IMG/VR virus record: IMGVR_UViG_3300043105_000137
DNA from: a virus
Taxonomy: Duplodnaviria > Heunggongvirae > Uroviricota > Caudoviricetes
DNA length: 64,000 nucleotides
Strand: one strand, 5' to 3'
How positions within the stretch are numbered: position 1 is the stretch's first letter; every line of letters begins with the position of its first letter. The notes under the pieces were generated by a model that worked only from the letters and a program-made list of their open reading frames with translations, had not been told where the DNA came from and did no database searches. A program made the translations under genes and the position numbers. Shown one piece after another: positions 23,471 through 64,000 of this stretch.

Positions 23471-23746
23471 ATGACAACCCTTCAACAACTCCGTAAAGCT
23501 CTCCAAACGTCAATCGTTACTTTCACCTACGTCAAAAAGAATGGTGAACTCCGAGAAGCTAAGGGTACCACAGACCCTGAATACATCTCCGAACAAAACT
23601 ACCGCCCACAAGGTGGTTATGGTCCGGGTGAATATGGTTTCAACTCTTACTGGGACATCGACCGTTGTGACTGGCGATGCTACCACCCAAGTTCAGTGGT
23701 GGAAATCAAATCTATTCAACCACTTGAAGAAGAAGCAGAAGTTTAA
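23471..23746 (+). CDS. Hypothetical protein (91 aa)
   Basis: Sits behind a promoter cassette and the conserved leader. Confidence 0.5.
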   Translation: MTTLQQLRKALQTSIVTFTYVKKNGELREAKGTTDPEYISEQNYRPQGGYGPGEYGFNSYWDIDRCDWRCYHPSSVVEIKSIQPLEEEAEV

Positions 23747-23852
23747 ACATTTTAGTCATATCGTTCATTCCCACAGGTGTAATAGTCCTGATCGGTAAAA
23801 GACCTGTGGGAATTTTTTCAAACAAAATCACTAACTATCTAAACAATAAATC

Positions 23853-24377: not shown

Positions 24378-24520
24378 AGGTATCTAAGTTAAAAGAAATT
24401 CTAAATAGTCTTCCTGATGAATGTGAAGATTATGATGTCATCTTTGGTGAATGTGTTATTGGTGACAAAATACGTTCTATCAAGGTTAAAGGAAAGAAAA
24501 TTGTAGTATCTTACGTCTAA
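24374..24520 (+). CDS. Small hypothetical protein (48 aa)
   Basis: An ATGA-overlapped ORF, MKVSKLKEILNSLPDECEDYDVIFGEC... Confidence 0.3.
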   Translation: MKVSKLKEILNSLPDECEDYDVIFGECVIGDKIRSIKVKGKKIVVSYV

Positions 24521-24532
24521 AAATCTGTCATT

Positions 24533-24901
24533 ATGCGAACTTATCAATTTATCAACTCAGTTCAAATCGTAGAAATCAGGTTATTTGGTTCAAAGGAATA
24601 TTCTCCTATTTGTTACCACACAAAACATCATCTCTTTGGTATCTCTTTTCTTCCAGTCATTGGTGGATACTACCATGATGTTTTAACTTCACAAAACATA
24701 CCGGAATCTGAAATAAAAGATTATATTGATGAAGACTTGTATATCCACCCTGACACTAAGTATGTCATGGAGTACCCCAGTGTTGAAATCCACCTCTCCA
24801 ATGATGATGTGATAACTCGACATTTCAAAACATATGAGAGAGCTGATAAGTTCACACATGCCCTTATCAATGAATCTGGAGCTCGATTTTATAAACTCTA
24901 A
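24533..24901 (+). CDS. Hypothetical protein
   Basis: A 122-aa ORF. Confidence 0.4.
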   Translation: MRTYQFINSVQIVEIRLFGSKEYSPICYHTKHHLFGISFLPVIGGYYHDVLTSQNIPESEIKDYIDEDLYIHPDTKYVMEYPSVEIHLSNDDVITRHFKTYERADKFTHALINESGARFYKL

Positions 24902-37379: not shown

Positions 37380-37452
37380 AACTCCGTAGCTCAGTTGGTA
37401 GAGCGTCTGGTTAAACACTGGAAGGTCGTGGGTTCGAGTCCCATCGGAGTTA
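37380..37452 (+). tRNA. tRNA with a non-canonical anticodon loop UUAAACA (nominal anticodon AAA with C37)
   Basis: The acceptor stem aactccg/cggagtt, the D-arm gctcagttggtagagc and the T-arm gtggg-ttcgagt-cccat are all canonical. The anticodon stem tctgg/ctgga contains two G-U pairs. Confidence 0.55.
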
Positions 37453-37471
37453 CTTTTTCATTTGATGCTTT

Positions 37472-38813: not shown

Positions 38814-39448
38814 AAGATATAAATTTTAAGTTAGTCTTTTCAGGAAAGTTATCTTCTTGGACTGACGTTTTTAATATAATCGAACAAGCTGAAGATAACC
38901 ATGATGTTCGTTTCCTAATTAAAGTGGATGGAACAACATATAGTTATTTTTGGTGGAATGAATATACTAAATCTTGGAATATGTTTTTTTCGTATTTCAA
39001 GAATTATGAACTGAAATCAACAACAAAATGGCCTTATTATTGGTGGCCTGATGCCGTAGATGTTTATATGGTAACTGACCCGACGATTTTTATTCGTGAA
39101 CTTCAAAACGATTTACGACATGAGTCTTTCCAAAAATTAACTTATCCTGACTCTAAACTGAGTGTAATGGTGGATATGATTAAACCTATACTTGGCTCAG
39201 TGGTTGAAGTTAAAAATGAGAAAGTATTGTTGTTGGGATTGTCTTATACATTTGATGACTATTATTACTACTACCTGACACAAGATAATAAAATCGGTTT
39301 CACATCTTCGGTAGGAAAAATAGTTCAACATTATGACCAAACACGAGCTGAGTTATTGAAGGAGGACATTGAAACAAAACAACTTGTCCAGAACCTTAGA
39401 TGGGAACATTTCAAAGACGCTCCGGAAATAGAAATAATACACGTTTAA
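38810..39448 (+). CDS. Hypothetical protein
   Basis: A 212-aa Trp/Tyr-rich ORF. Confidence 0.45.
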   Translation: MKDINFKLVFSGKLSSWTDVFNIIEQAEDNHDVRFLIKVDGTTYSYFWWNEYTKSWNMFFSYFKNYELKSTTKWPYYWWPDAVDVYMVTDPTIFIRELQNDLRHESFQKLTYPDSKLSVMVDMIKPILGSVVEVKNEKVLLLGLSYTFDDYYYYYLTQDNKIGFTSSVGKIVQHYDQTRAELLKEDIETKQLVQNLRWEHFKDAPEIEIIHV

Positions 39449-39450
39449 TT

Positions 39451-40311
39451 ATGATAACATTTGTTTTAATTATCTTAGCAATTTTAATACTTCCTTATAT
39501 CCTTCATTTTTTGGGATTGGAAATATCAGAGTATTACAGAAAGAAATATAATGATCGTGAACTGGTCAAGGAATTCAAAAACTATCGAGGTTATATTGGA
39601 TTTTATAACAACCCCAGTCTTATGATTTATTATACACATCATGGAGTTTATACCGACTGTAAATGGGCTCACAAAATTCTAATCTATTTTGGTGGTTGTG
39701 TCTTGTGTTGGCAATGGGGTAATGACTTCAATGAGAATACAGGTCTTGACTATGCTTCTATTTCATACTCTTGGGGTTGGGATTCTATCAATGGTGAAAA
39801 ATGGTGGACTGATTTTAGATGGCGTAACCGTACTTTTTCTAACCCTTTCAAAGCAACCCACTATGATAACTCTTGGATAATCGACTTTAATAATAAGACG
39901 TTAGTTGAGAAAAGACAATTAGATGACATTAATGATTATCCTCTTGTTGATGTTAGATTGAATACCACCTACCGTATGAAGAATGACACAGTTCAAGATG
40001 TTTCCCGTATCCGTTGGTGGATTGAACAATGGGAATGGTCAGTGCCCTTCCTCAATAAAATAGGTCTTGGTAATTATTGTAAGAAAATAAATGTTGACCT
40101 CGAATTCCAATCTGACACTGAACTTGGCGTCAATCGGGATTCTTGGAAGGGTGGTGTAATGGGTGCCACTGTTAGAATTAGTGATGAACCCGAACTTCTC
40201 AAACTTTATCTCGACATCGTTAAACATCAGAAATTGGAGAAGATACCTCTACTCAGAACGGCTATCAAAAACCGTATCGACTATTTTATGAATGAAGAAA
40301 AAAAATATTGA
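39451..40311 (+). CDS. Membrane-anchored hypothetical protein
   Basis: The start was chosen at MITFVLIILAILILPYILHFLG, a transmembrane helix. The track start at 39400 overlaps the upstream gene. Confidence 0.4.
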   Translation: MITFVLIILAILILPYILHFLGLEISEYYRKKYNDRELVKEFKNYRGYIGFYNNPSLMIYYTHHGVYTDCKWAHKILIYFGGCVLCWQWGNDFNENTGLDYASISYSWGWDSINGEKWWTDFRWRNRTFSNPFKATHYDNSWIIDFNNKTLVEKRQLDDINDYPLVDVRLNTTYRMKNDTVQDVSRIRWWIEQWEWSVPFLNKIGLGNYCKKINVDLEFQSDTELGVNRDSWKGGVMGATVRISDEPELLKLYLDIVKHQKLEKIPLLRTAIKNRIDYFMNEEKKY

Positions 40312-51849: not shown

Positions 51850-52524
51850 ATGAAAAAAGTCAACAATCAATATAGAGTTAAATCCCTTCAGTGGTATGAC
51901 AGTCTCTACAATGGACAATTCAATGGACATATCTCTTTTGATGATGGTAATACGTTTTTCAGGGACATGCAACGGTACTGTGGTCAAATAGTCACTGTTC
52001 GAGAAACCTTTAAAGATGGCACATTTACAGTTGATGAGGATGGTGGATGTTATAGATGGACTGAGGAAATGATGGAAGATGAATTCCTCCCCGCTAACAT
52101 ATATGACATTCTAAAACATGCTAAGAAAGGTTATGTTCTCTATTGTCCTCTTTATGGTGGTAAGGTAAAACTGGAAAATGTGAATGAGGACAAAACCATC
52201 ACTGTTCTGACATCAGATGGAGAAGAAGCAACATTCAATGAGTATGGTCAAGTCACCTTCAATGGAAAAGTGATTGGAACTCAGCCTTGTTTATTCCCAG
52301 ACTCAAAAACAAACACTTGGGAGAATTTCCTTGGTTTCCACAGAAGTGAGCGATATGAAGAGGCAGAATATTACTTCATCGACCAGTACGGAACAATACA
52401 AGGAACAGTAGATAAAACAACAGAACGTGACATTCTCCGTTATGAGGCTTTCAATTATTTCTTCACGAGAGCTGAGGCCTTCCGTAGTGACATTTACCAA
52501 GCATACCATAAACTTCACTATTAA
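51850..52524 (+). CDS. Paralog family B member
   Basis: Carries the N-terminal repeat YRVKSLQWY...YCGQIVTV and the C-terminal module VLYCPLYGG...FYFIDQYGTI...NYFFTRAEAFRSDIY. Confidence 0.5.
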   Translation: MKKVNNQYRVKSLQWYDSLYNGQFNGHISFDDGNTFFRDMQRYCGQIVTVRETFKDGTFTVDEDGGCYRWTEEMMEDEFLPANIYDILKHAKKGYVLYCPLYGGKVKLENVNEDKTITVLTSDGEEATFNEYGQVTFNGKVIGTQPCLFPDSKTNTWENFLGFHRSERYEEAEYYFIDQYGTIQGTVDKTTERDILRYEAFNYFFTRAEAFRSDIYQAYHKLHY

Positions 52525-52564
52525 TTACGAAAACAAATCATCTAATCAGTAAAAAGAAAACGAT

Positions 52565-53242
52565 ATGAATTACAAAGTAGGTGATAGAGTAGTGGTCAAA
52601 TCAAAAAATTGGTATGACACTAAGAAATTCCTGAATGTAGGTGTCACTTGTGGTGCTTATATTTTCACTCCTGACATGGTTAAATTTTGTGACCAGACTG
52701 TAACTATCTCTGATGTGATTGATGACAGTTATTTGATTGATGAGGATGGGGGTGGAAATGTTTGGCGAGATGAGATGTTCGCTGGCTTTGAACCTGTTAA
52801 TATCTTCCAAACAATCTACCGAAACATCAAGGACTATGATTACTTGTGGTGTAATTTTCTTGGCACAGTTTACGTAGAAATGTTGAACCCGGATACTCAG
52901 ACCATACGAGTTCTCAAAAACATGCAGAGTTATGAGTTCAACAGATATGGACAGTTTAATTGTGAACCCAACCATGACAACACTCCACTTCATGTTCCCG
53001 TTTCACTTTTCCCTAATGAAGATGTGAAATCATGGAAAGAACTGGAAGTAGTTGATGAGTGGCCGAGAAAGGACTTTGGATTTTCATATTTCTTTGTTGA
53101 TGAGGTTGGACATATTCAAGTGACCAAGGATTTTCACACCGACGTAGATGACATGAGGTATAAAATCCACAACTATTTTATTAATGAACGAGATGCGAAA
53201 GGAAGTAAATTCTGGCGTATCTATCGAGAAAGGGAAAGTTAA
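52565..53242 (+). CDS. Paralog family B member
   Basis: Carries the N-terminal repeat YKVGDRVVVKSKNWY...FCDQTVTI and the C-terminal module ...FFVDEVGHI...NYFINERDAKGSKFW. Confidence 0.5.
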   Translation: MNYKVGDRVVVKSKNWYDTKKFLNVGVTCGAYIFTPDMVKFCDQTVTISDVIDDSYLIDEDGGGNVWRDEMFAGFEPVNIFQTIYRNIKDYDYLWCNFLGTVYVEMLNPDTQTIRVLKNMQSYEFNRYGQFNCEPNHDNTPLHVPVSLFPNEDVKSWKELEVVDEWPRKDFGFSYFFVDEVGHIQVTKDFHTDVDDMRYKIHNYFINERDAKGSKFWRIYRERES

Positions 53243-53244
53243 AG

Positions 53245-53877
53245 ATGGCTAAATATACGAAATACGATAAAGTTCGTGTGAGTCTCGGTCAGTTCAATTC
53301 ATCAGCTAAAATTATATCTGGAATGGAACAGTTCATAGATGAGGTCATGACTGTTTGTGATGTGAACCCAGATGGAAGTTACCAGATGTATGAAGATGAT
53401 GGAAGGTTCAAATGGTATGATGATTTCCTGATTGAAGAAAGCCGGGTGGACATAAACCACATCCTGAGATATTTCAAAGAAGGGACAATCTTGTATTCAC
53501 CAGCTTATGGATTTGTGGAACTAAAGAATGTAATGGACACTGGTGAGATTTTGGTTTGGGAGGTAGATTCCGAAATAGATATCCGAGCTCACATATTCGA
53601 CAGGTTTGGAAGACTCGACGGAAGTCCCGCTGGTGAATGTCTCCTGTTTCCAGATGCGTACCAGAGAGATTGGACAAAACTGAAAAACATCCCTACAGGT
53701 TGGCGTGCTGAGATAAATCAATCTTACTACTATGTGAATGATATTGGTGATATTGTTTATGTTCGAGATTGTGACAGTTACCAAGACCGACAGAGATATG
53801 TTATTCACAACTATTTTCGCACGAGAGAATTCGCAGAAGATAGTGAATTGTATAAACTATTAAATACGGAACAATGA
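53245..53877 (+). CDS. Paralog family B member
   Basis: Carries the C-terminal module ILYSPAYGFVEL...GECLLFPDAYQRDW...YYYVNDIGDI...NYFRTREFAEDSELY. Confidence 0.5.
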   Translation: MAKYTKYDKVRVSLGQFNSSAKIISGMEQFIDEVMTVCDVNPDGSYQMYEDDGRFKWYDDFLIEESRVDINHILRYFKEGTILYSPAYGFVELKNVMDTGEILVWEVDSEIDIRAHIFDRFGRLDGSPAGECLLFPDAYQRDWTKLKNIPTGWRAEINQSYYYVNDIGDIVYVRDCDSYQDRQRYVIHNYFRTREFAEDSELYKLLNTEQ

Positions 53878-54176
53878 GTATAGTGACCAATGTACCTCTT
53901 GGTGTCGGTCAAAGGCAGAATTACAACTATCAGATTTATGAGCTAATCAAATCCAACAGTGTGATTCAAAACCGAGCCGACGAAATCAAGACATTAATTG
54001 AAGAATACCCAAGTCAAAGGTTCGCTCAGTTAATCTGCAATTATATTTGTCCTGATTACCGTAGCCCTGAACCAAGTGTAGAAACCAAGTTAATCATGGA
54101 TGCTTTCTTTCCGGACTTCAGTGATCCGTTTTTTGAAGAAAGTTACCAGACCTATAATCGACTAAAACATGAGTAA
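53874..54176 (+). CDS. Hypothetical protein
   Basis: A 100-aa ORF. Confidence 0.4.
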   Translation: MSIVTNVPLGVGQRQNYNYQIYELIKSNSVIQNRADEIKTLIEEYPSQRFAQLICNYICPDYRSPEPSVETKLIMDAFFPDFSDPFFEESYQTYNRLKHE

Positions 54177-54645
54177 ATTCAATCTATTCGACACTTTACA
54201 TAGCCGAGATGAACTCCGGTGGTTTCCTACGTTGTTTTGGAGTCCTCTTTATGGTGATATGTACTTCCAGAGTTTTTTAGAGTACCGCCGGCTTCAGTTC
54301 AAGGTCTTAGATGGAGATGAGGTTGTCTTTGATGAATTTGGTCGACCTGTTGATTTTCCTAATAGTGAGCTGATGATATTTCCTAACAAGAGACAACAGG
54401 ATTGGTCAAAATGGTCAGACAAGATTCCTCTGAGGTGGCGAGGTGACGAAGGGGACACTTACTACTACATTGATGAGGTTGGAACGATTCGGGAGGACAC
54501 TGAGATGGACACTACTAAAGACCAAACTCGATGGATGATATGTAATTATTTCCAGACGAAAGAAATCGCACGGTCAACTCCACTATTCCAATCCTACCAA
54601 GTTTTATTATCTGCAATGGAACGACATCAAAAACCGGAAGAATGA
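54169..54645 (+). CDS. Paralog family B member (C-terminal module only)
   Basis: Carries ...MIFPNKRQQDW...TYYYIDEVGTI...NYFQTKEIARSTPLF. Confidence 0.45.
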   Translation: MSKFNLFDTLHSRDELRWFPTLFWSPLYGDMYFQSFLEYRRLQFKVLDGDEVVFDEFGRPVDFPNSELMIFPNKRQQDWSKWSDKIPLRWRGDEGDTYYYIDEVGTIREDTEMDTTKDQTRWMICNYFQTKEIARSTPLFQSYQVLLSAMERHQKPEE

Positions 54646-54875
54646 AATTTTATGTAGCTCGTGATGGAAATGATGTCCTTCACTTATTCAAATCAAAACC
54701 AGCTCGTCATAACCACTATAAAATCTGGTGTGGTCGAGGAGATGTGTTCCAAATTGACTCAGCACTTTGGCCAGATTTAAGATGGATAGATGAGGCACTA
54801 CCGATAGAGATAACTCAATTTCCTGATCCAACCAGAAAGGAATATCAAATTAAACCAAAATATGACATCGAATAA
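54642..54875 (+). CDS. Hypothetical protein
   Basis: A 77-aa ORF. Confidence 0.35.
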   Translation: MKFYVARDGNDVLHLFKSKPARHNHYKIWCGRGDVFQIDSALWPDLRWIDEALPIEITQFPDPTRKEYQIKPKYDIE

Positions 54876-55335
54876 AACAGTAACAACCATCAAACAGTCA
54901 TCAATTCTTCTCGACTGTGGAATTAATCCTGACTCAGCTGACCATCATTGGATATTCAAAGACATGGAGGGAAACTTCATTACGAAAAACGAATATGAAG
55001 AAAGATTTGAAAATAATGAGTATGGTCTACAACGTGAACTACTACCGAACTCAGACACGGATCCAGACATCATGTATCCTGCTTGGTCTCTCTGGTCACT
55101 GATAGATGCACTGAGAATCAACCCCAGTAAATATGAGTTGACCATAATCGTGTACCAAAATCATGAAGTTGACATTACTCTGACACTTAAAGAAACTCTG
55201 GAAGTCATTTTCCATAAATCTGGTGATCCTTTAGATGTTCTGGTTAAGTTAGTTGTCTTGGCCAAGTTTTCAACCTACTGTGAGGGACAACCCACTCTAC
55301 AGGAATTTGTTGATGGATGGGACTCAGCTCAGTAA
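54862..55335 (+). CDS. Hypothetical protein
   Basis: A 157-aa ORF. Confidence 0.45.
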   Translation: MTSNKTVTTIKQSSILLDCGINPDSADHHWIFKDMEGNFITKNEYEERFENNEYGLQRELLPNSDTDPDIMYPAWSLWSLIDALRINPSKYELTIIVYQNHEVDITLTLKETLEVIFHKSGDPLDVLVKLVVLAKFSTYCEGQPTLQEFVDGWDSAQ

Positions 55336-55372
55336 ACATAGATAGTTAAACAATATAAAAATTAGTTAAATT

Positions 55373-55627
55373 ATGATGCCTGATTTTATTACAATTTACC
55401 GTTACGACAAGAAAAAATACTACACCATCTCTATCTTCAAACATAAGGTAGGAGGTAAGTATTCATTCCTCAACATTACTAAGCAACATATCTGCCCTTG
55501 TGAGTTTGACACTTATGAGGATGCTATGAATGAGTTGAAAGAAAAGGAGCAGAAAGGTGAACTCAAAATCATGTCTACTTGGCAACCAGAAGTCCCAGTT
55601 GAAGATGGAATTGATAATGAATGGTAA
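55373..55627 (+). CDS. Hypothetical protein
   Basis: An 84-aa ORF. Confidence 0.4.
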   Translation: MMPDFITIYRYDKKKYYTISIFKHKVGGKYSFLNITKQHICPCEFDTYEDAMNELKEKEQKGELKIMSTWQPEVPVEDGIDNEW

Positions 55628-55880
55628 AACTCTACACCTTATCCTGAAATCCAAATGGTATGAGATGATTGAGTCAGGAGTGAAAAGGGAGGAATACCGA
55701 GATGTGAAACCCTATTGGACAAAACGGTTAGACGATACGAATTACGATACTGTTTGTTTCCATAAAGGTTACACATCAGAAACCTTGACTTTTCAGATCA
55801 CTGACATCTCCATCAGAACCGGAAATCCAGAATGGGGAGCTCAACCAGATGTCCAATATTATGTAATCAGTTTCCAATGA
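55617..55880 (+). CDS. ASCH/DUF3850-like small protein (tentative)
   Basis: The start is at the ATGA overlap. The segment HLILKSKWYEMIESGVKREEYRDVKPYW resembles the ASCH-like beta-barrel signature. Confidence 0.35.
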   Translation: MNGKTLHLILKSKWYEMIESGVKREEYRDVKPYWTKRLDDTNYDTVCFHKGYTSETLTFQITDISIRTGNPEWGAQPDVQYYVISFQ

Positions 55881-56380
55881 TTCCCAGTAAAGAAACCATC
55901 GACCGTCTGATAAATTCTGTCCCAGACTCAGCCATCGAAATATTTGGTGAACTTAATGACAACTATAATAAGATTTCCAGTTGTCGTTGTGCTGACTTCT
56001 TCCTTCGTGGATTTGAAGATGATGAGGTAGTAGATGCCAATGAATGGTTGGTCACTTGTGTGATTGACCGGATGATACTGAAATCTGATGAAGGGGTGGA
56101 ACGATGGATGGAACAGGTTATCAGGGAAAAACAGGACAAAGGTTATGGGGACTTCACATTCATCAGGAAACGCATGCGGAAATACATGGGGAATGAAAAG
56201 TTTTGGATTATTACTGTGATCCTGGACATTGTTTCTGAGATAACCGAACCACATGACTTCCCTAATGTATGCAGTTGGTTGTTATTCCTCAACTACTATA
56301 ATATCTTGGATAAAATTAACGACGAACGAAAGTACGAAAATGAAAACAACCATACTGAAACGACTGAGAAAGGAAGCTAA
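55832..56380 (+). CDS. Hypothetical protein
   Basis: A 182-aa ORF. Confidence 0.4.
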   Translation: MGSSTRCPILCNQFPMIPSKETIDRLINSVPDSAIEIFGELNDNYNKISSCRCADFFLRGFEDDEVVDANEWLVTCVIDRMILKSDEGVERWMEQVIREKQDKGYGDFTFIRKRMRKYMGNEKFWIITVILDIVSEITEPHDFPNVCSWLLFLNYYNILDKINDERKYENENNHTETTEKGS

Positions 56381-56669
56381 GAAAAATGTAAAGTTAGTTC
56401 CTATCTCCGGTAACATCTATGACCCTCAACCTCAGTTTTGTGTCCGGATAAGATATAAGAATAAGAAATATTACCTTTCCAAAGAAATGAAATGGACAAG
56501 GGACTGTTTCGACCGATTCGACTTCTTTGAAATAGGAGCGGCTGTATTTTTGAATGAAGGTCGGAGGTTATATATATTAGAGTATATTGAAGACCTACGT
56601 GACGAAAGACGAAATGAGGAAAACAAAAAAATAAGAAAAAATATTATCAAAAAGTTGACATCTCTCTAA
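56340..56669 (+). CDS. Hypothetical basic protein
   Basis: The start was moved to the internal ATG (MKTTILKRLRKEAKK) to reduce overlap. The track starts at 56253. Confidence 0.35.
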   Translation: MKTTILKRLRKEAKKNVKLVPISGNIYDPQPQFCVRIRYKNKKYYLSKEMKWTRDCFDRFDFFEIGAAVFLNEGRRLYILEYIEDLRDERRNEENKKIRKNIIKKLTSL

Positions 56670-56672
56670 TTT

Positions 56673-56693
56673 TTTGTTATTATTATAATGTAA
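56673..56693 (+). promoter_or_regulatory. Class-2 conserved motif
   Basis: The sequence is TTTGTTATTATTATAATGTAA. Confidence 0.4.
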
Positions 56694-56772
56694 GATAAAT
56701 TAAACGACATCTTACAAAATCAAATAATTTTTTAATTTTTAATTTTAATTTTTTTAAAAACGTTATAGTATT

Positions 56773-57885
56773 ATGACGAAAAATTTCATTGAATCTGCAC
56801 AAGCAGTACATGGTGACAAGTATGACTATTCTAAAGTCAATTTTGTAAACACTAAAACTAAAGTATGTATCATCTGCCCTGAACATGGTGAATTTTGGAT
56901 GACACCGCAGAACCACTTGGAAGGCCTTGGTTGTCCAGCATGTCGAGAAAATCAGATCAACCTCGACAACCAAAAGGAACACACTGAGTTTATTCGCAAG
57001 ACCGAGTTGGAAATGGACAAATCCCAACCTCGTTTCGCTGACAAGATGACAACAACTAAGTTCATTAACCAAGCTCGACAAGTACATGGTGACAAGTATG
57101 ACTATTCCTTGGTAGAGTATGTAAATTCAAAAACCAAGGTATGTATCATCTGCCCTGAACATGGTGAGTTCTGGATGAGCCCGATAAACCACTTGAAAGG
57201 ACTTGGTTGTCCGGACTGTTGGCATAATAAACACCAAATGACAACAGATGAGTTTATTGAAGAGGCACGACGACTGCATGGTAAAAAGTATGACTATTCT
57301 AAAACCAAGTACGTAAACGCAAGAACTAAGGTATGTATCATCTGTCCAAAACATGGTGAATTTTGGATGACACCTAAAGACCACCTCACTGGAAAAGGTT
57401 GTGCTGTATGTCGAAACGAGAAACACAAACTGACACAGGATGAGTTTATTCGCCGAGCCAAAGAAATTCATGGTGACAAATTCGACTACTCTAAGGTGAA
57501 ATATGTAAACTCAAACACCAAGGTATGTATCATCTGTCCAGAGAATGGTGCGTTCTGGTCAACCCCACGACACCACTTGAATGGTTACACTGGACAATCA
57601 GTATCAAACCGAGCAATCAAAAGGTTCATCAATAACGCTGAGAAAGACTTCGACGAGAAACAGTCAGATGAAAACCCCATCCAAGCTGAGCGAGATCGTA
57701 AAATAAGTCAAGAGTATTTCATCAACATGGCCAAAGAAATTCATGGTGACAAATATGACTACTCTAAGGTGAACTATGTAGACATGAAAACTGATGTATG
57801 TATTGTTGATGTCGAACATGGAGAATTTTATCAATCACCTAAAGACCACCTTATGGGGAAAACGATTTCATTCGCACGAAATTAA
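56773..57885 (+). CDS. Protein with six tandem zinc-ribbon (DUF4379-like) repeats
   Basis: The unit HGDKYDYSKV.YVN..TKVCIICPEHGEFW..P..HL.G.GCP.C recurs six times. Confidence 0.5.
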   Translation: MTKNFIESAQAVHGDKYDYSKVNFVNTKTKVCIICPEHGEFWMTPQNHLEGLGCPACRENQINLDNQKEHTEFIRKTELEMDKSQPRFADKMTTTKFINQARQVHGDKYDYSLVEYVNSKTKVCIICPEHGEFWMSPINHLKGLGCPDCWHNKHQMTTDEFIEEARRLHGKKYDYSKTKYVNARTKVCIICPKHGEFWMTPKDHLTGKGCAVCRNEKHKLTQDEFIRRAKEIHGDKFDYSKVKYVNSNTKVCIICPENGAFWSTPRHHLNGYTGQSVSNRAIKRFINNAEKDFDEKQSDENPIQAERDRKISQEYFINMAKEIHGDKYDYSKVNYVDMKTDVCIVDVEHGEFYQSPKDHLMGKTISFARN

Positions 57886-57930
57886 TAGAACTTACTGAAT
57901 GAATTTTTAATATATTTTGGCATGACTAAT

Positions 57931-57990
57931 TTGGAGAATTGAATTTTTTCTTGTACATTTGTAGAGTAAATAAAATTCAATTCTCCAAAT
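57931..57990 (+). promoter_or_regulatory. Class-1 promoter whose -7 element sits in the loop of a 17-bp perfect inverted repeat
   Basis: The arms ttggagaattgaatttt...aaaattcaattctccaa are perfect over 17 bp. The loop carries cttgtacaTTTGtagagtaa. Confidence 0.5.
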
Positions 57991-58011
57991 TTTTCACAAT
58001 CAAACAATCAT

Positions 58012-58761
58012 ATGAAATTAAATGTAGGTGATAAAGTAAGAGTCAAATCTCAACAGTGGTATTTAGAGAACAGAGATACAAACACCAAACAAATCTCGAT
58101 AGGTAAGATTGAACTCCCCTTCTATTTCAAAGAAGACATGAGTAATTTCTGTGACCAAATCGTGACCATTAAAGATAAAATAGACTCAACTTATTTTACC
58201 ATTGAGGAAGATAACAACGTCTGGACTTCCGGTTGTTTCTCAGCTCTCGTTAATTTAGATGGAACTGAAACCCCTATCCTCGACCTAATTCAAATCCTTG
58301 GTAAATGTGAAGAAAATCAAGTCTTCTACTGTCCGATGATTGGTGATGTAGTTGTGGATAGTATGTATGGTGATTGCATATTCCTGAGAAAACCAAAACT
58401 ACCCGGAGAAGAAACAATCCAGAAAAACAAATACTATATCAACAACGACCTGATACTTCATAAAGATGGCACGTTTGATGAGGATGGTGAAATCATGTTA
58501 TTCCCCTCTAAACATAAAAGAGATTGGAATGACTTTAATCCTATTCCTTGGAGGGCTCAACGTTATGGTGTTTATTTCTATGTAAATGAAATAGGCAATG
58601 TGGTCGCTAAGAATGACTATGGTGATGACTTTGATGAGAACCAGTATAAAATCGGTAACTATTTCAGAGTATATGAGTCGGCCTGTCAATCACTATTCTA
58701 CTTCATGAAACATCCAGAGATTGGTCATGAAGATACCACAGAACGACATTTGAAATATTGA
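58012..58761 (+). CDS. Paralog family B member
   Basis: Carries the N-terminal repeat LNVGDKVRVKSQQWY...FCDQIVTI and the C-terminal module ...IMLFPSKHKRDW...YFYVNEIGNV...NYFRVYESACQSLFY. Confidence 0.5.
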   Translation: MKLNVGDKVRVKSQQWYLENRDTNTKQISIGKIELPFYFKEDMSNFCDQIVTIKDKIDSTYFTIEEDNNVWTSGCFSALVNLDGTETPILDLIQILGKCEENQVFYCPMIGDVVVDSMYGDCIFLRKPKLPGEETIQKNKYYINNDLILHKDGTFDEDGEIMLFPSKHKRDWNDFNPIPWRAQRYGVYFYVNEIGNVVAKNDYGDDFDENQYKIGNYFRVYESACQSLFYFMKHPEIGHEDTTERHLKY

Positions 58762-58802
58762 CGAAAATAAATCGTAAATCAGTATTCAGATATTGTTAGC
58801 TT

Positions 58803-58858
58803 TATTTAGCGGTTTTTATTTGGAGATGTCGAGAAAAACTTGTATCTTTGTAATGTAA
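58803..58858 (+). promoter_or_regulatory. Class-1 promoter, TTAGCGGTTTTTATTTGGAG subtype
   Basis: The sequence is TTTGG...TAtcTTTGtaatgtaa. Confidence 0.55.
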
Positions 58859-58892
58859 AACAAAAGAACATTGAAAAGATGATTGATAAAAG

Positions 58893-58958
58893 ATTTAACA
58901 AATTTTTAGCACTTAAAATTTGGTCAAGTCAAAAAAATCAAGTATCTTTGTAATGTAA
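58893..58958 (+). promoter_or_regulatory. Class-1 promoter cassette with the conserved leader
   Basis: A full cassette identical in layout to 22976 and 23366. Confidence 0.6.
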
Positions 58959-58996
58959 AAAGAAAACAAGTTTAACTCTCTAAAAAACAAAAAACA

Positions 58997-59329
58997 ATGA
59001 AACGCATGTTCTTAGGTCTTTCAATGATGGCCGCTTATAATCAACATATCATCAACGGTAATCTTGGTATCGCAGTTCTCATCCTTGGTGGTTTCCTTTT
59101 CGTCATGGGTTTCAGAAAAGTCAGCGAAGCCTACCGTAAATTCAAAAGCAACAAAGACAACGTTGTTTATGAAAATGGTACTACTACCTACAACATCGGT
59201 CAAGACAACTACTACAATTTCATCGCTACTGGTAATGTCAAAATCAATGACAATGTATATACCGACTTTAATGTAGTTGAAACTCCCCTCGAAAACGGTA
59301 CAACCAAAGTGGAACTCTTCCGTAAATAA
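58997..59329 (+). CDS. Small membrane protein
   Basis: A hydrophobic N-terminal segment is present. The gene sits behind tandem promoters and the conserved leader. Confidence 0.5.
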   Translation: MKRMFLGLSMMAAYNQHIINGNLGIAVLILGGFLFVMGFRKVSEAYRKFKSNKDNVVYENGTTTYNIGQDNYYNFIATGNVKINDNVYTDFNVVETPLENGTTKVELFRK

Positions 59330-59360
59330 TCGTCACGAAAATCGTCTAAAAAAATAAACA

Positions 59361-59705
59361 ATGGACAGAACTAATAACCACTTCAAGGTCGGAGACAAAG
59401 TAAAAGTCAAAGACCTATCATCTCTCTCTAAAGTTTGTCCCGGATATGATGAACCTCTGATTATCTGTGACCCTGATGAAGAAGATGAATTATGGTATCC
59501 TCCTTACTCCGACTTCGCTGGTAAAACAGTTGAAATAATTGAAGCTCGGTGGATCAGTGGCGAATCCAGAGACAACAAAGGTAATCCACTCGAAGAAGGT
59601 TACTGGGTTTATCTAATCAATGAAGATGACGGTATCCTTAACTGGTATGACCCCTATTTTGAACAAGAAGTCGTTACGAAAAATAATCGCTCAAAAAAGA
59701 AATAA
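59361..59705 (+). CDS. Hypothetical protein
   Basis: A 114-aa ORF. Confidence 0.45.
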   Translation: MDRTNNHFKVGDKVKVKDLSSLSKVCPGYDEPLIICDPDEEDELWYPPYSDFAGKTVEIIEARWISGESRDNKGNPLEEGYWVYLINEDDGILNWYDPYFEQEVVTKNNRSKKK

Positions 59706-59707
59706 TC

Positions 59708-60070
59708 ATGAATAAAATAGCTACCTCAATTCAACAATCTGAGTTTCTCCTATCTAAAGGTGTCCCTGTTGAAACTGCTGATATGTTCTACTCAGTAACA
59801 GGTAAATATCTCTTGGCTAAACAGGATTACTCGATGGGACCTGATGATATTCCCGCTTGGTCTCTTTCCGCCCTGATGGAATTACACAACGGAATCAGTA
59901 TTTCTTCAGAACCGAATTGGGAACAAATTTATGAAGGTTATGTGGACTACAGTGACCCGAAAACCACTGACGCCGACTTCCAAAAATGTAACGGTCTGAA
60001 TTTCGTTGATGTCGTCTTTAACTGCATCCGTTATCTTCTCGACAATAACATCCCACTGTCCAACATTTAA
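59708..60070 (+). CDS. Hypothetical protein
   Basis: A 120-aa ORF. Confidence 0.45.
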   Translation: MNKIATSIQQSEFLLSKGVPVETADMFYSVTGKYLLAKQDYSMGPDDIPAWSLSALMELHNGISISSEPNWEQIYEGYVDYSDPKTTDADFQKCNGLNFVDVVFNCIRYLLDNNIPLSNI

Positions 60071-60081
60071 CTTTCAGTGAT

Positions 60082-60369
60082 ATGGAAAACATTGATATCT
60101 CTCCATCACTCGTAGAGGTAAATGGTCACAAGTTCTATCCATACGATACCAAATCATGTCCAATCTGTGGCAATGATATGGAACTAATGGATTGTTATGA
60201 TGAATGTCTGTCCGGCCCAAGGAATAGATTTCAAGGTACTTCTTCTCCTTGTCTAACGTCGGCCAAAGTAACTAACCAACCACTTTATCAATTTTTCACT
60301 TATCGTTGCCCTCATTGTGTATCAGAAATAAAATATAAACTAAATGGAAACAGCTTCTACGACATCTAA
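60082..60369 (+). CDS. Zinc-ribbon hypothetical protein
   Basis: The cysteine pairs CPICGN...CPHC are present. Confidence 0.4.
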   Translation: MENIDISPSLVEVNGHKFYPYDTKSCPICGNDMELMDCYDECLSGPRNRFQGTSSPCLTSAKVTNQPLYQFFTYRCPHCVSEIKYKLNGNSFYDI

Positions 60370-60799
60370 TTTTTCCAACACCCCTAAACAATTCGACCTC
60401 ATCATTACGAATACGAAAGGCGAACATGGGAAAATTATGAATGTTGTCACTAAAAGATATAAAGGAGGATACCTATTCCTTTATGAATGTGTCTTCCTCG
60501 ATAAGTTTGGGTTCACATATAATGACACCCTCAATTATAATCAATTCAGACTGTTCGACCCGTTCTTGGTTAACTTCTACTCCAAGGATAAATTCAAAAA
60601 ACTCGAACAGACTCTATATGAAAATGGTTTAGTATCTCTCGATGACTGCATACTGTTCAAACCATCCCCTATTACTACTTCTGCTTCTACCGACGATCCA
60701 GTAAATCTAACCCCGGAAACAGACGCATGTAATGAACCGGAAACTAATTCAGGCATCACGATTAATATCAACATCGAAAACCTGACCATCAACCTTTAG
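60344..60799 (+). CDS. Hypothetical protein
   Basis: A 151-aa ORF. Confidence 0.4.
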   Translation: METASTTSNFSNTPKQFDLIITNTKGEHGKIMNVVTKRYKGGYLFLYECVFLDKFGFTYNDTLNYNQFRLFDPFLVNFYSKDKFKKLEQTLYENGLVSLDDCILFKPSPITTSASTDDPVNLTPETDACNEPETNSGITININIENLTINL

Positions 60800-61099
60800 T
60801 TTCCATCTGTGGTCTTTTCTTCGCACGACTTTTCGCCAAGTTTATGACCACCCTTATTTTGACCATCATTACATATGCTGACATAATCAGACCTTAAACT
60901 AATCATTACACAGTATGCTATTATTGTAAAATGTGCTAACCTAACTTTCTGAATATGTCACACAATCCCTTGGATTTCTTCTGAGGGATTGTTTTTTTGT
61001 ATTCTGACATTTTGTTACTATTTCCTGATTTTTACTTTCATTTTGACACCTCCTGAAGAAAAACTCAGGGGATTTTTTATAAGCATGTAAGTAAATCCC

Positions 61100-61830
61100 C
61101 TCTTTTACTTTCATTTTGTCATCTTAACCCAGTCCCCAGACTCAGCTGACCAGAACTCAACCCATATAACTGTCCATCCCCCTTCCTCAACTTAGCCCTC
61201 TTTACCATTCCTCTCCCTTTCCCTCACGATACGAATGACGAAACTACTACTCATCCACCCCCATATCTACCATACCGGATATATTAACCCCCAGATATAC
61301 ACCCCAGACTTCCAGATACCAGATTCCTCAACCCAGTAAATAACCCCCAGATACATATTAACCCTATTTCCTCTATTTTACCCTTTTTACTATACGAACG
61401 ATTTTACGATTTTTTCCATTTTTACCCCTTTTTTACTTAGCTAATTTTAAGACACATTTTTTCACTATTTTCCATGTTTTTCCCCTTTCTTACTTTTTAC
61501 CTCTTTTTACACTTTTTACCTCTTTTTTACTTAGCTTATTTTATTCCCCCTTTTTACCATATTTTACACTTTTTTGGAATTCTTGGAAATATGTGGAAAT
61601 CTGTGAAAACTACATTTCCGGCCTGTCCTGAGTTGGAGGGGTGGTTTTTCAAAGGAGTAAAATAAGCTAATTTCTGAGGGGGTAAAATAAGCTAATTTTG
61701 GGGTATTTTTAGGATATGTAAAAAAGACTAATTTTGGGGTATTTTTGGCCTATTTTGGGAGGGGGGTAAAATTAGCTAAAATTAGGGTTTTTTAGGGGGT
61801 ATTCAGAATCACTCAAAGAAGGCTAGAACT
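61100..61830. repeat. Repeat-rich, strand-skew-switching non-coding region: candidate replication origin or genome terminus
   Basis: The left part is C/T-rich with repeated AACCCCCAGATA(c/t)A units. At least 12 TTTTTAC(C) iterons follow. After about 61560 the + strand becomes G-rich, with repeated GTAAAATAAGCTAATTT and CTAATTTTGGGGTATTTTT units. Confidence 0.4.
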
Positions 61831-62027
61831 TGGCTCAGTAAATAAAAATAAATAAAAAATAAATTAAAATAAATTAAAAATAAATCGAAACAAATCTGAC
61901 AAAAATGAGTTAAAAAATTGGGTATATATTTTTGAATTTAATTAGCTCAGTATAAATAGATTACAAAAAAATTCGATAATAAAATATATAGATAAAAAAG
62001 ACATAATTTTACATTAATATTACAGAA

Positions 62028-62762
62028 ATGTTAAAAAATAATATGGGAATAAAAAATTGGGTTGAAAAAAGTGGGGGGGATGTCCGTTTTTGTTATGTTT
62101 TAAGTATGAATAGATTTTATTTTGATTTAAGGAAGGAAAACATCTTGAAGGAAGTAAGGGATGTTTTGAGTGAATTAGATCCTCGTTGTTTTGATTTTTT
62201 AGAATTTGACAAGCATTTTCTTAGGATATTGGATATGAATTGGAAAGAAGAAACAGATGTCAAATATAATAAAGATAATGAGAGTTATGAAGATAGTTAT
62301 GGTAATATGTCAGGGTATGAATATTACTGTAAGAATGCACCCTATATTGTAATTGTTTTATACAGTTATTATGGGGGTAATTTTTATGATTGGGGATATG
62401 GACAACGAGATAGGGAATATACTGAATGTCCTGAGTTAGCTGAGTATAGGGAACACATGAATAGTGATTGGCGAAGTATAATAGGAGGACATTTAGGTGG
62501 AGACACTGGATGTAGAGATAGAAAGGGAGAATTGATAGAGGTTGGAGATTTGGTATTTGAATATAATGTCAATAAATTACATAGAGTAGATATAGGGTTA
62601 AATGGTGAGGTTGTCGCAATAGAGATGATGACTGATGATGACTTATACTTAACGGGAATATGTAGTGATTGTATTATAGTAAAGAAATGGGATGAAATAG
62701 GCCAAGTAAAGAACGCAAGAGTAGATGAAGAAAGTTGTGAAAAAATTAGAGCTGGAATTTAA
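62028..62762 (+). CDS. Hypothetical protein (C-depleted coding block)
   Basis: A 244-aa ORF. The + strand is strongly purine-rich with very little C. Confidence 0.45.
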   Translation: MLKNNMGIKNWVEKSGGDVRFCYVLSMNRFYFDLRKENILKEVRDVLSELDPRCFDFLEFDKHFLRILDMNWKEETDVKYNKDNESYEDSYGNMSGYEYYCKNAPYIVIVLYSYYGGNFYDWGYGQRDREYTECPELAEYREHMNSDWRSIIGGHLGGDTGCRDRKGELIEVGDLVFEYNVNKLHRVDIGLNGEVVAIEMMTDDDLYLTGICSDCIIVKKWDEIGQVKNARVDEESCEKIRAGI

Positions 62763-63471
62763 GAGGTGGGGAAATTTGATTCCGCAGTATCATAAGGAGT
62801 ATGGTACAGGATTTCATAGTGCCCCTGTTGAGTGGGGTATTTATGCTTTTCCTCATGGTTTTGTAGAGAGTTTTTTATTAGGTGGAGTTGGGAGTGGAAA
62901 TATTGTGAATGGTCGACGGAAGTTTCTGAAAGATGAGAATGGGAAGAAGTTAAAGATACGACAAGTTGATTTATTTCATGAGTGGTTTGATGATAAGAAT
63001 CAGTATCACAAGGAATGGCGAGGAAAGTACAAGAAGTTATTTAAGGGGATAGATCCATATGATGTTAGTAGGTTTTGTTTAGATGAAGATACACAAACCC
63101 TAGGATGGGAGATGGGGAAGTCTTATGTTGAGAGTAGTTGGGTAATAGAGAATGAGCCGAGGACATTTAAGTATAGTGGAAATATATGGTGTCATTTTGT
63201 TGAAGTGGCGAAGCGGAGTGAGATATTGGCTGAGAGTGGAGGATGGATATTAGTAGATATACGTACCTATAAGAAATTATTGAAGAAATATTGTGACCGG
63301 ATAAAGTATGACAGTCACATATCAATAAATTACAAGTGGTATCGAGAGGCTGGGGTAGAATACAAGCCGAGAGGAAGGATTGGAGGATATCCTTTAAGTA
63401 ATATCAGTAAGGATTGGTTTGAGGTATTCATAGAAGATGTAACGAATAATAAAAAAAGGAAAAAGAGATGA
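62725..63471 (+). CDS. Hypothetical protein
   Basis: A 248-aa ORF that overlaps the upstream gene by 38 nt. Confidence 0.4.
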   Translation: MKKVVKKLELEFKRWGNLIPQYHKEYGTGFHSAPVEWGIYAFPHGFVESFLLGGVGSGNIVNGRRKFLKDENGKKLKIRQVDLFHEWFDDKNQYHKEWRGKYKKLFKGIDPYDVSRFCLDEDTQTLGWEMGKSYVESSWVIENEPRTFKYSGNIWCHFVEVAKRSEILAESGGWILVDIRTYKKLLKKYCDRIKYDSHISINYKWYREAGVEYKPRGRIGGYPLSNISKDWFEVFIEDVTNNKKRKKR

Positions 63472-64000
63472 AGATAAAGATAAAGATAAAGGAAGATTTG
63501 CGAGTATTGAAAGGTGGAACTGAATATGAGTTTGATTTTGAAGGGAAGAGTGAGCCTTTCATATATATTACTGGAAAGAATGGGTGTGGAAAGAGTACGT
63601 TGATAAATTGTGTTCGAGTTCGTCAGTGTGATAATGAAGGAGAAGACAGGAGTGGTTGGGGAGCGAAGTTAAGTTATGGTGATTTGTTTTCTGAGGATTT
63701 TGAGGGGAAGTCGGAAGTAGAGACGGATTTTGAGAAGATATATTTCTTATCGAGTGAATTTGATGACACTAAGAGTTTGAATAACTGTGCGAGTGCTGAG
63801 AGTTATGTAGAGTATGGTGGATATATGAATCGGCACAAGAGTAATGGGGAGAGTGAGTTAAATTTGATAGGGAAATGGTTAGTGGACAACAGGGACAAAT
63901 TTAATGACAAGACTTTGATTATCTTTGATGAGATAGACAAAGGATTATCGTTAGAATGGACTGTTGGGGTAGTGAATATGATGAACAAGTTGCATGAGCA
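63468..64000 (+). CDS. P-loop ATPase (AAA_15/AAA_23 or SMC-N-like), 3' partial
   Basis: Walker A is ITGKNGCGKST and Walker B LIIFDEID. The ORF runs off the end of the window. Confidence 0.5.
   Translation, partial: MKIKIKIKEDLRVLKGGTEYEFDFEGKSEPFIYITGKNGCGKSTLINCVRVRQCDNEGEDRSGWGAKLSYGDLFSEDFEGKSEVETDFEKIYFLSSEFDDTKSLNNCASAESYVEYGGYMNRHKSNGESELNLIGKWLVDNRDKFNDKTLIIFDEIDKGLSLEWTVGVVNMMNKLHE

Follow-up and report, generated by a model that had tools for sequence, protein, structure and literature searches.

For the genome composition of phage T7, a transcription-induced strand bias has been proposed, and the GC-skewed regions that are prone to R-loops include ColE1 RNA II, T4 oriF and oriG, and the immunoglobulin switch regions. 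Rho favours RNA that is C-rich, G-poor, unstructured, and rich in YC dimers; to our knowledge, no operon-wide depletion of C has been described as Rho evasion. In vertebrate mitochondrial DNA, steep compositional gradients of the size described below are found where a strand is exposed during strand-displacement replication (PMC4182315, PMC3269012). GC skew predisposes DNA to R-loops (PMC3787257). Cytidine-rich rut sites are where Rho anchors (PMC6797219, PMC6144790), and this factor keeps expression from phage DNA limited (PMC3526286). The origins and early-transcription starts of uncultivated huge phages are essentially unknown and beyond the reach of homology.

Here, we describe a locus in a huge phage of the rumen (~350 kb). 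The window, namely the whole stretch of 64,000 nucleotides that was analysed, ends within the feature of interest, and the part beyond its end was read in an identical contig (L001, offset 52724); the sequence read comprises 73.5 kb of the 351.6-kb genome. The original prediction had pointed to a strongly cytosine-depleted coding block at 62028-64000. We find that this block is the right arm of a local antisymmetric switch in strand composition, mainly of G versus C and, near the centre, of purine versus pyrimidine. The switch is centred on a dyad of ~200 bp at ~61.6 kb, with inverted clusters of iterons and an A+T-rich stretch at its flanks. To the left as to the right, the strand running outward 5'->3' is G-rich and C-poor regardless of gene direction, and the effect fades over ~8 kb. 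The centre most likely marks DNA that is repeatedly opened, either as a replication origin, as a strong early promoter, or as both. As a cause, we tentatively favour an origin-like site of strand opening with strand-specific mutation, a reading that we consider quite possible, if somewhat short of probable. The right arm and its genes within the window are the following.

61580 to 64000, continuing to ~70.6 kb in L001, + strand: right arm, C-depleted and G-enriched, defined by composition and skew.
62028 to 62762, + strand: gene 1, an open reading frame of 244 aa (C.060, G.260, skew +0.63).
62725 to 63471, + strand: gene 2, 248 aa, from a widespread uncharacterised phage protein family.
63468 to 64000 (end at 64199 in L001), + strand: gene 3, 243 aa, a minimal ABC/SMC-type P-loop ATPase according to profile matches.

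The + strand of the block (62028-64000) consists of A.347, C.071, G.284, and T.298, against A.352, C.154, G.193, and T.302 in the reference bases 1-60000, and its GC skew is +0.60. Among 1973-nt windows drawn from 1-60000, C has a mean of.153 (sd.0148, minimum.120) and skew a mean of.115 (sd.078, maximum.308), which gives the block z-scores of -5.5 (C) and +6.2 (skew) and bears out the predicted depletion. The last two 1-kb windows reach +0.595 and +0.588, whereas the highest value elsewhere in the window is +0.366. As the G+C content of the block (35.5%) is nearly that of the background (34.7%), G has taken the place of C. The start given in the prediction needs correction, since the C-poor domain begins at ~61580, inside non-coding DNA. 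An assembly artefact can be set aside: the region is identical in five independent assemblies, and the + strand open reading frames are unbroken and closely packed even though C depletion raises the frequency of stop codons. A second C-poor patch occurs at 15040-15634, with neither iterons nor a mirror arm.

The bias touches all codon positions, fourfold sites, and non-coding DNA. Codon usage, for which a comparison with the rest of the DNA had been proposed, shifts throughout: from background to block, the CTN share of Leu codons falls from.57 to.18, the TCN share of Ser codons from.71 to.32, and NNC/NNY from.30 to.15, with NNG/NNR rising from.30 to.47. The proteins follow suit, with Pro, Thr, Ala, and Gln 0.57-0.68 times as frequent as in the background and a 1.4-1.5-fold rise in Glu, Gly, and Cys. 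A local nucleotide bias thus reshapes proteins, and it may help to explain the homologue-less look of such genes. Coding content is as had been anticipated, that is, uncharacterised proteins and a P-loop ATPase. Gene 1 has no match in Pfam, PHROGs, NCBIfam, or PADLOC. Gene 3 barely exceeds the Pfam cut-offs for AAA_21 and AAA_23, matches ABC_tran and SMC_N weakly, has ABC-type Walker A and signature regions, and gives weak matches to defence-system ATPases. Selection for unstructured mRNA was considered as a cause and rejected, the mean MFE per 150 nt being -24.7 in the block and -26.2 in the background.

The right arm decays smoothly. Across its 21 genes, whole-gene skew declines linearly going outward (slope -0.052 per kb, intercept +0.69; rho -0.95, p 8e-11), third-position skew does likewise (rho -0.83), and at fourfold sites the successive 2-kb bins outward give +0.68, +0.35, +0.38, +0.18, and -0.14. 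Skew is back at background near 70.6 kb, where the conserved genes SmpB and DUF2828 start. Internal terminators show no skew steps; the sole intergenic terminator-like site (68017-68052) is without one. Fourfold sites in the right arm are A.38, C.05, G.25, and T.32, against a background of about A.34, C.14, G.09, and T.42. At 62-64 kb, T thus stands at.32 vs ~.42 and A at.38 vs ~.34; farther out, at 64-70 kb, T is at.40-.48.

The prediction had also called the preceding 60 kb balanced, which holds for most of it and fails for the last ~2.5 kb; 60900-61580 mirrors the block with 6% G and 31% C. The left arm comprises the following features.

58997 to 60799, + strand: last five genes of the upstream operon, the left arm within coding DNA, defined by third-position skew.
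60962-60992 and 61050-61071, + strand: two hairpins resembling intrinsic terminators (13 and 7 stem pairs, with a T run after each), closing the upstream operon.
61013-61051 and 61086-61124, + strand: direct repeat (D7), the junction of the array in the sister strain.
61100 to 61580, no strand assigned: non-coding spacer depleted of G and rich in C and T (A.241, C.310, G.060, T.389).

Third-position GC skew in the five upstream genes is -0.76, -0.51, -0.36, -0.40, and -0.44, with third-position C as high as.39 and G as low as.05. Their mean of -0.49 is the lowest for any five consecutive genes in the window (the others have a minimum of -0.33, a mean of -0.05, and an sd of.14), and over 19 genes skew rises the farther a gene lies from the centre (rho +0.78, p 9e-5). 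As these genes also lie on the + strand, they run against what a bias tied to the coding strand predicts. Fourfold sites on this side are A.20, C.27, G.09, and T.44, so that the left and right compositions are complements of one another.

The spacer, which has no ORF longer than 63 aa, holds one array unit ending CACGATACGAATGACGAAAC at 61225-61244 (8501-8520 in L001). At the 61013-61124 junction, the sister strain L010 carries an array of 2147 bp (2147 gap columns in the L001/L010 alignment) flanked by a 126-nt direct repeat (family D6 of L010), and the G-poor spacer, 0.7 kb here, measures 2.8 kb there at a skew of -0.6. The array has no ORF above 92 aa; we found neither sequence kinship between array and block nor paralogues inside the block. 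An Rfam search of spacer, array, and centre gave no match at E <= 1, with two chance microRNA matches elsewhere in the locus.

Between the two arms lies the centre, made up of the following elements.

61420 to 61566, - strand: left iteron cluster, TAAAATWAGCTAA within TTTTAC repeats (inverted-repeat pairs I1, I2, and I13).
61557 to 61631, no strand assigned: skew sign change and dyad centre, a plateau of cumulative G-C with its minimum at 61569.
61654 to 61801, + strand: right iteron cluster, GGGGTAAAATAAGCTAATTT, with 36-nt repeats (repeat families D3, D6, and D8).
61820 to 62027, no strand assigned: A+T-rich stretch and leader of the first gene, with 10-11-nt tandem repeats (61839-61885) and TAnnTTTG at 61927.

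Skew turns from minus to plus at the centre, a local minimum of cumulative G-C, and this sign change falls midway between inverted clusters of the repeat GGGGTAAAATAAGCTAA. The iteron TAAAATWAGCTAA is present in at least three copies per side in opposite orientations: matches on the - strand lie at 61437-61449, 61531-61543, and 61554-61566 on the left, and exact copies at 61658, 61683, and 61767 on the right. At 0-1 mismatch it is confined to this locus within the window, and its 16-mer form gave single chance matches only in IMG/VR. The segment 61560-61660 folds at z = -2.9 on the + strand, and 61580-62028 consists of A.412, C.082, G.192, and T.314. Each right iteron bears a match to the promoter-like consensus TAnnTTTG, so that the right-hand iterons could be tandem promoters or operators instead of initiator sites. 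On the + strand, this motif occurs at 61693, 61729, 61740, and 61927, and on the - strand it is absent from 60700-62100.

The locus thus shares with iteron-type origins its intergenic iterons, an adjacent A+T-rich region (61820-62020), and a minus-to-plus skew. What it lacks is an adjoining initiator or replication gene and a DnaA box: no box was found at the centre within 1 mismatch, and no replication family was recognised among 13 of the flanking block proteins, nor any initiator, primase, or helicase-loader gene beside the centre. An initiator of an unrecognised type may lie near the iterons. A minus-to-plus sign change fits replication origins, and a double-strand break with 5'->3' resection would give the opposite sign.

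We infer that the centre is an origin and that single-strandedness is the cause of the bias, as well as any role of R-loops. The duplex would be repeatedly opened at the centre, leaving the outward 5'->3' strand single-stranded for longer than its partner, either as the displaced strand or as the lagging-strand template at a bidirectional replication origin, with firing by strand displacement or from a transcript (R-loop) primer. The exposed strand would lose C, largely to T, and gain G, largely from A. Such strand-specific substitution would scale with exposure time, and hence with distance, and would drive silent sites and non-coding DNA, as well as small proteins under weak constraint, to the extreme. 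The monotonic dependence of silent-site skew on distance agrees with single-strand exposure; the missing gain of T and loss of A at fourfold sites in 62-64 kb do not. The first cause named in the original prediction, a strand-specific process of replication or transcription, is the best-supported class, the bias being anchored, decaying, sign-flipping, and present at silent and non-coding sites. Its simple form, deamination of C, is insufficient, as fourfold sites of the first 2 kb hold less T and slightly more A than the background, which amounts to purine loading. A further argument against an origin is that a genome-wide origin should yield a step in skew, not a local spike. If a mirror-image gradient on inverted iterons does mark such a site, it would locate it from sequence alone, and it would also hint at the mode of firing, namely prolonged exposure of one strand, as at mitochondrial or transcript-primed origins.

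Comparison with relatives shows that the bias arose within this lineage. The prediction had proposed looking for it in homologues from other phages, where it turned out to be missing: the orthologues of gene 2 in related phages are of normal composition, and across 962 kb of the DNA of such phages all 1-kb windows have a GC skew <= +0.44. The feature is thus not a general property of origins in this phage group. Among 50,697 GenBank phages there was no DNA match, the phage was not found in IMG/VR, and a metagenome scan returned relatives only (best identity 59%). Relative to the orthologue P0002, whose surroundings have a normal skew, net change amounts to A>G +36, C>T +18, C>G +9, and C>A +8. 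This net flux is pairwise and covers the one gene that is comparable; it replaces a three-taxon parsimony, which was confounded by third-position saturation. Twofold sites shift in the direction expected for an excess of A>G and C>T, and selection would take the same paths; as transitions would dominate under selection too, the net flux cannot separate mutation from selection. The two strains differ at 113 sites in 11.8 kb (within the block, 42 A/G and 20 C/T), differences that cannot be polarised and simply follow base composition.

The main rival to origin-like opening places the cause in the RNA. Selection on transcripts at a major operon boundary, through Rho avoidance and/or stable RNA:DNA hybrids, is possible, though on balance we think it unlikely. 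The first operon, with its small, probably early, host-takeover genes, would have been kept C-poor and G- or purine-rich, and the C-rich spacer or array after the two terminators would serve as a Rho trap against upstream read-through. Counts of YC dimers in + strand RNA agree with this, being 31-37 per kb in the block and 175 in the spacer against 81 in the background. With their C and G content and this YC density, spacer and array resemble rut regions, as a prediction; the + strand RNA of the array is nearly structure-free (MFE -1.2 kcal/mol for 84 nt), and, whichever strand is folded, its units do no better than shuffles. Within 52000-61200 (some 9 kb), terminator-like sites are limited to the two + strand hairpins directly preceding the spacer, and promoter-like repeats lie past the centre, all of them on the + strand. 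Like many early regions, the block is made up of small genes that lack homologues. GGG runs number 14.7 per kb in the block vs 4.5 in the background and GGGG runs 6.8 vs 0.9; together with the skew of about +0.60 and the promoter-like consensus motifs upstream, these G clusters predict an R-loop-prone region. G-quadruplex motifs are absent from the locus. Selection on transcripts, however, accounts neither for the steady gain in C that the translated upstream genes of the + strand show as the centre is approached nor for the inverted arrangement of the iterons around the switch point; a smooth fading along one operon without terminator steps is not easily reconciled with it, and related phages with the orthologous gene do without the bias. 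If the bias were nonetheless selected in RNA, it would be an unreported route to a Rho-resistant first phage operon.

Transcription could also act as a mutagen, with heavy transcription from the centre exposing the non-template strand, which would lose C and gain G to a degree that fades with polymerase density. The gradient indeed runs from a promoter-like cluster, the non-coding leader is biased from ~61580 on, and A>G and C>T lead the net flux. We nevertheless regard such a by-product as improbable: the left arm would need leftward antisense transcription through + strand genes, and neither a promoter-like motif nor a terminator was found there on the - strand; T is not enriched at fourfold sites near the centre; and a skew of +0.6 exceeds anything in ~1 Mb of related phage DNA, many operon starts included. 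Equally doubtful to us is a more elaborate version of the favoured reading, an architecture of origin plus early promoter not described before, in which the extreme load of G and purines on the outward strands has a function and reinforces itself. Replication would be primed by long R-loops that form on transcription from the centre, mutation would make the exposed strand still richer in G and poorer in C, and the C-rich array, which varies, would serve over kilobases as a Rho trap or insulator. If true, phages would have their own analogue of the transcript-primed origins of mitochondria or ColE1, one recognisable from sequence alone.

Two other causes named at the outset are disfavoured. A horizontally acquired module that keeps its donor's composition would suit the scarcity of homologues, since of the 19 genes called in 62028-70594, 17 lack one where related phages are syntenic, but it is very unlikely given the unchanged G+C content, the smooth gradient that includes the non-coding centre, the mirror-image left arm, the normal composition of the orthologues of the 248-aa gene (the copy in L008 also lies near SmpB), and the fact that neither att-like repeats at the flanks nor an integrase or transposase was seen. 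That the DNA expressed first was selected to avoid restriction, modification, or other short targets containing C is scarcely credible. GC-containing palindromes of 4 and 6 nt do occur ~22-26% less often in the block, but this drop (from 14.5 to 11.4 per kb for the 4-mers) is a base-frequency effect alone that gives little protection, GATC is commoner there (1.30 vs 0.76 per kb), no di- or trinucleotide context of C is purged, the remaining Cs are clustered (CC observed/expected 1.78), and the mirror-image arm is left unexplained.

How, then, does the locus compare with the described systems? Like rut regions (PMC6144790, PMC6797219), the spacer and array have far more C than G, dense YC dimers, and no secondary structure, with the block being the opposite; known rut regions span ~80 nt, whereas the spacer and array, whose rut function is predicted, extend over 0.7-2.8 kb. 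With T7, the locus shares co-oriented genes and a C deficit on the coding strand, but in T7 the bias is mild and genome-wide, and here it is extreme, local, and mirrored across a centre. Human CpG-island promoters (PMC3787257) likewise have a non-template strand that is G-rich from a promoter-like region and decays downstream, with G clusters; unlike R-loop-prone regions, the phage block is protein-coding throughout over 8 kb, and its ~28% G is well under that of switch regions.

Bacterial and plasmid origins resemble the locus in architecture: they too switch from minus to plus at the minimum of cumulative G-C, are intergenic, have iterons and an A+T-rich stretch, and show an effect that is independent of gene orientation. 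They differ in that their skew is constant over the whole replichore, whereas here it is local and gone within ~8 kb, at an amplitude (+/-0.6) several times the usual one, and the phage centre has neither DnaA boxes nor a recognisable initiator gene. Compared with vertebrate mitochondrial DNA, the phage locus differs in that fourfold sites near its centre gain purines (G up, T down) and not G+T, and the phage gradient is two-armed and takes up ~5% of the genome. What the two have in common is an extreme skew at silent sites, monotonic with distance from the origin, an altered amino-acid usage, and, as far as the one gene compared can indicate, net A>G and C>T on the putatively exposed strand.

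The strongly cytosine-depleted coding block that had been predicted at 62028-64000 is indeed present: it holds 7.1% C and 28.4% G (GC skew +0.60), compared with 15.4% and 19.3% in the stretch 1-60000. Tested against windows of equal size, C lies at z = -5.5 and skew at z = +6.2; the block's G+C is 35.5%, and A and T are nearly unchanged from background. Since its sequence is identical in five independent assemblies, the skew is not an artefact. The same bias, also sought in related huge phages, is absent from 80 loci (962 kb), where 1-kb GC skew averages 0.075 (sd 0.127) and never exceeds 0.44.

The bias acts at the nucleotide level throughout, reaching both codon choice and amino acid composition.

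Codon shares (background, then block)
CTN among Leu codons:.57,.18
TCN among Ser codons:.71,.32
CGN among Arg codons:.55,.35
NNC/(NNC+NNT):.30,.15
NNG/(NNG+NNA):.30,.47

The C-requiring amino acids (Pro, Thr, Ala, and Gln) fall to 0.57-0.68 of background, with Glu, Gly, and Cys up 1.36-1.52-fold. Among 65 family members, the 248-aa protein encoded at 62725-63471 has the third-lowest obligate-C content and the third-highest obligate-G content. Its orthologue P0002 (58% identical) and homologue P0003 (41% identical) both lie in normal-skew DNA (C 14.4-14.7%, G 20.4-20.7%), so the bias arose at this position and in this lineage and was not brought by the gene. With P0002 as the reference, net changes in the window gene come to A>G +36, C>T +18, C>G +9, C>A +8, and T>G +4.

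On the right arm, the bias declines gradually and forms no plateau, as can be followed on a contig (L001) that shares 11,276 identical bases with the window and reaches window-equivalent 73,471.

Per-gene GC skew, right arm (window-equivalent positions)
up to 64.6 kb: 0.52-0.66
up to 67.35 kb: 0.40-0.48
up to 69.7 kb: 0.24-0.40
past 69.7 kb: 0.07-0.25

Over 21 right-arm genes, skew declines with distance (Spearman rho -0.95, p 8e-11; straight-line slope -0.052 per kb, intercept +0.69) and is back to background at 70.6 kb, where genes conserved in related phages start (a 205-aa protein, SmpB, and DUF2828). In 62028-70594, 19 genes are called, and 17 of them have no homologue in the related phages' loci. 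The SmpB gene, shortly 3' of the block, is full-length (L001 18511-18960) and belongs with the candidate counter-defence or translation-related cargo listed below.

Across a non-coding dyad at ~61.6 kb (the centre), the composition is mirrored. The spacer at 61100-61580, directly upstream, holds 6.0% G and 31.0% C, and third-position skew runs from -0.76 to -0.36 in the last five genes upstream, despite their + strand orientation; its mean (-0.49) is below every other five-gene run (minimum -0.33). Skew increases with distance from the centre among the 19 left-side genes (rho +0.78, p 9e-5), and the fourfold-degenerate sites of the two arms are mutual complements. The next most C-rich coding stretch is a + strand gene run at 23471-24901 (overall skew -0.12 to -0.15, third-position skew -0.44 to -0.59).

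Base frequencies at fourfold-degenerate sites
right arm, 62-64 kb: A.38, C.05, G.25, T.32
left arm, 58-60 kb: A.20, C.27, G.09, T.44
background (approximate): A.34, C.14, G.09, T.42

In a sister strain (L010, about 1% divergent), the G-poor non-coding stretch spans 2.8 kb at skew -0.6. It carries an array of degenerate ~240-nt units, about nine in all, each ending in CACGATACGAATAACGAAAC, bounded by a 126-nt direct repeat with a terminator hairpin. The array has no ORF longer than 92 aa and no Rfam match, and it folds no better than shuffled sequence. Its 2147-bp indel separates the two strains (window junction 61071-61086; L010 6205-8350), and several assemblies (L002, L004, and L012) are interrupted there, at its edge or within it.

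The skew changes sign at the minimum of cumulative G-C (61557-61631), flanked by two oppositely oriented iteron clusters:
61437-61566, - strand, left cluster of (GGGG)TAAAATWAGCTAA
61658-61779, + strand, right cluster of (GGGG)TAAAATWAGCTAA

The motif occurs nowhere else in the window at 0-1 mismatch. Rightward from the centre come 36-nt repeats, an A+T-rich tandem-repeat stretch, and the first gene of the block. Each 36-nt repeat contains TAnnTTTG, the Bacteroidota -7 promoter consensus, a match that is no proof of promoter function here. Only two intrinsic-terminator-like hairpins are found in 52-61.2 kb, both on the + strand at 60962-61071, closing the upstream operon. The locus has no known Rfam family, G-quadruplex motif, or DnaA box. 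At the corresponding position, intergenic and upstream of the operon, the phage with the 58%-identical orthologue carries another set of iteron-like repeats (L006 6140-6460; about five direct repeats GGGKT...TTACAAAATG), without extreme skew. A second small C-poor patch in the window (15040-15634; two genes of 99 and 102 aa, C 7-9%, skew +0.38 and +0.58) has neither iterons nor a mirror-image arm.

Antisymmetry about the dyad, independence of gene orientation, and dependence on distance point to a process treating the strands oppositely on either side of a fixed point, and the sign of the switch is that of a replication origin. On these grounds we rank first, if tentatively, an origin-like site at the centre, with repeated duplex opening and strand-specific substitution. 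At each opening, the outward 5'->3' strand would remain single-stranded longest, either as a displaced strand or through delayed lagging-strand synthesis, with priming possibly by transcripts begun at the adjacent promoter-like repeats; substitution on this exposed strand would then yield the bias. From the original prediction's strand-specific deamination we retain the strand-specific process, but simple deamination does not suffice: it should bring a gain of T, whereas fourfold sites near the centre show purine loading. The latter also counts against an origin, as do the local spike in place of an expected genome-wide step (in DNA read to 73,471) and the lack of a recognisable initiator gene near the centre.

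The main rival, which we rate somewhat less likely, is selection on transcripts: the block would be a Rho-resistant and/or R-loop-prone early operon, and the spacer a C-rich, structure-free Rho trap behind the two terminators. YC dimers agree with this (31-37 per kb in the block vs 81 in background, and 175 in the structure-free spacer), and the boundary elements are well accounted for, but the C-rich translated upstream genes and the inverted iterons are left unexplained. A purely transcription-driven mutational bias is unlikely, as it requires a leftward transcript that is unsupported. The origin and transcript-selection models are compatible and would come together in a transcript-primed origin.

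Other explanations fall away. A horizontally acquired module, as once proposed, is contradicted by the unchanged G+C and by the normal composition of P0002 and P0003; likewise, selection against C-containing restriction or modification targets is rejected because no specific C context is purged. Unstructured mRNA was rejected as a cause, and a double-strand break with 5'->3' resection, as at packaging sites, would expose the opposite strands and predict the opposite sign. A physical genome end at the centre is unlikely because at least four independent assemblies run straight through it; contigs ending nearby do so at the array indel junction. Separately, the dinucleotide GC is strongly under-represented in 1-58000 (observed/expected 0.44; AGC 0.39, GCA 0.35, GCG 0.32), and these 58 kb lack GCGC altogether and contain hardly any CCWGG or CTAG, which suggests that GC-containing targets are avoided across the genome, independently of the C-poor block.

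The window (G+C 34.7%) has all its ORFs of at least 150 aa on the + strand but one, which overlaps a longer + strand ORF. The accessory and nucleotide-metabolism genes it carries are those commonly found in very large phages: a GMP reductase/IMPDH-like protein, thymidine kinase, Dam-type methyltransferase, Dda-like helicase, RlaP-family nucleotidyltransferase, GH108 lysozyme, six tRNA genes, and the following candidate counter-defence or translation-related cargo:
39400-40311, Acb3-like protein (E 3.5e-7; Pfam describes the family as CBASS inhibitor)
33521-35431, Sir2-domain protein, 636 aa
6578-7351, Thg1-like tRNA-His guanylyltransferase

A tRNA-Phe at 37380-37453 (ARAGORN), next to a tRNA-Lys(CTT), has the anticodon AAA, unusual among bacteria and phages; four further tRNAs lie at 40-1906. 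Divergence between the two strains peaks (51 differences per kb) at 56773-57885, encoding a 370-aa protein of repeated ~95-aa DUF723/treble-clef modules (KYDYSKV...VCIICPEHGEFW...) that matches PHROG endonuclease families. The window DNA matches none of 50,697 GenBank phages, and exact matches to its proteins occur on metagenome contigs from JGI and Logan, the longest 351,598 bp; the runs of more distant relatives (SRR094926) are presumably cow-rumen data. Shine-Dalgarno motifs are scarce (6% of genes vs 12% in background) and leaders are A-rich, which suggests a Bacteroidota-type host.

In open-access papers we found no phage locus of this kind described, and its interest would grow if read depth or transcripts marked a transcript-primed origin. 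With bacterial origins it shares a strand-asymmetry switch, as also on record for the mitochondrial exposure gradient (PMC3269012, PMC4182315) and GC-skewed R-loop promoters (PMC3787257); unlike in these systems, the asymmetry here is extreme, local, and two-armed, and lies within protein-coding phage DNA.
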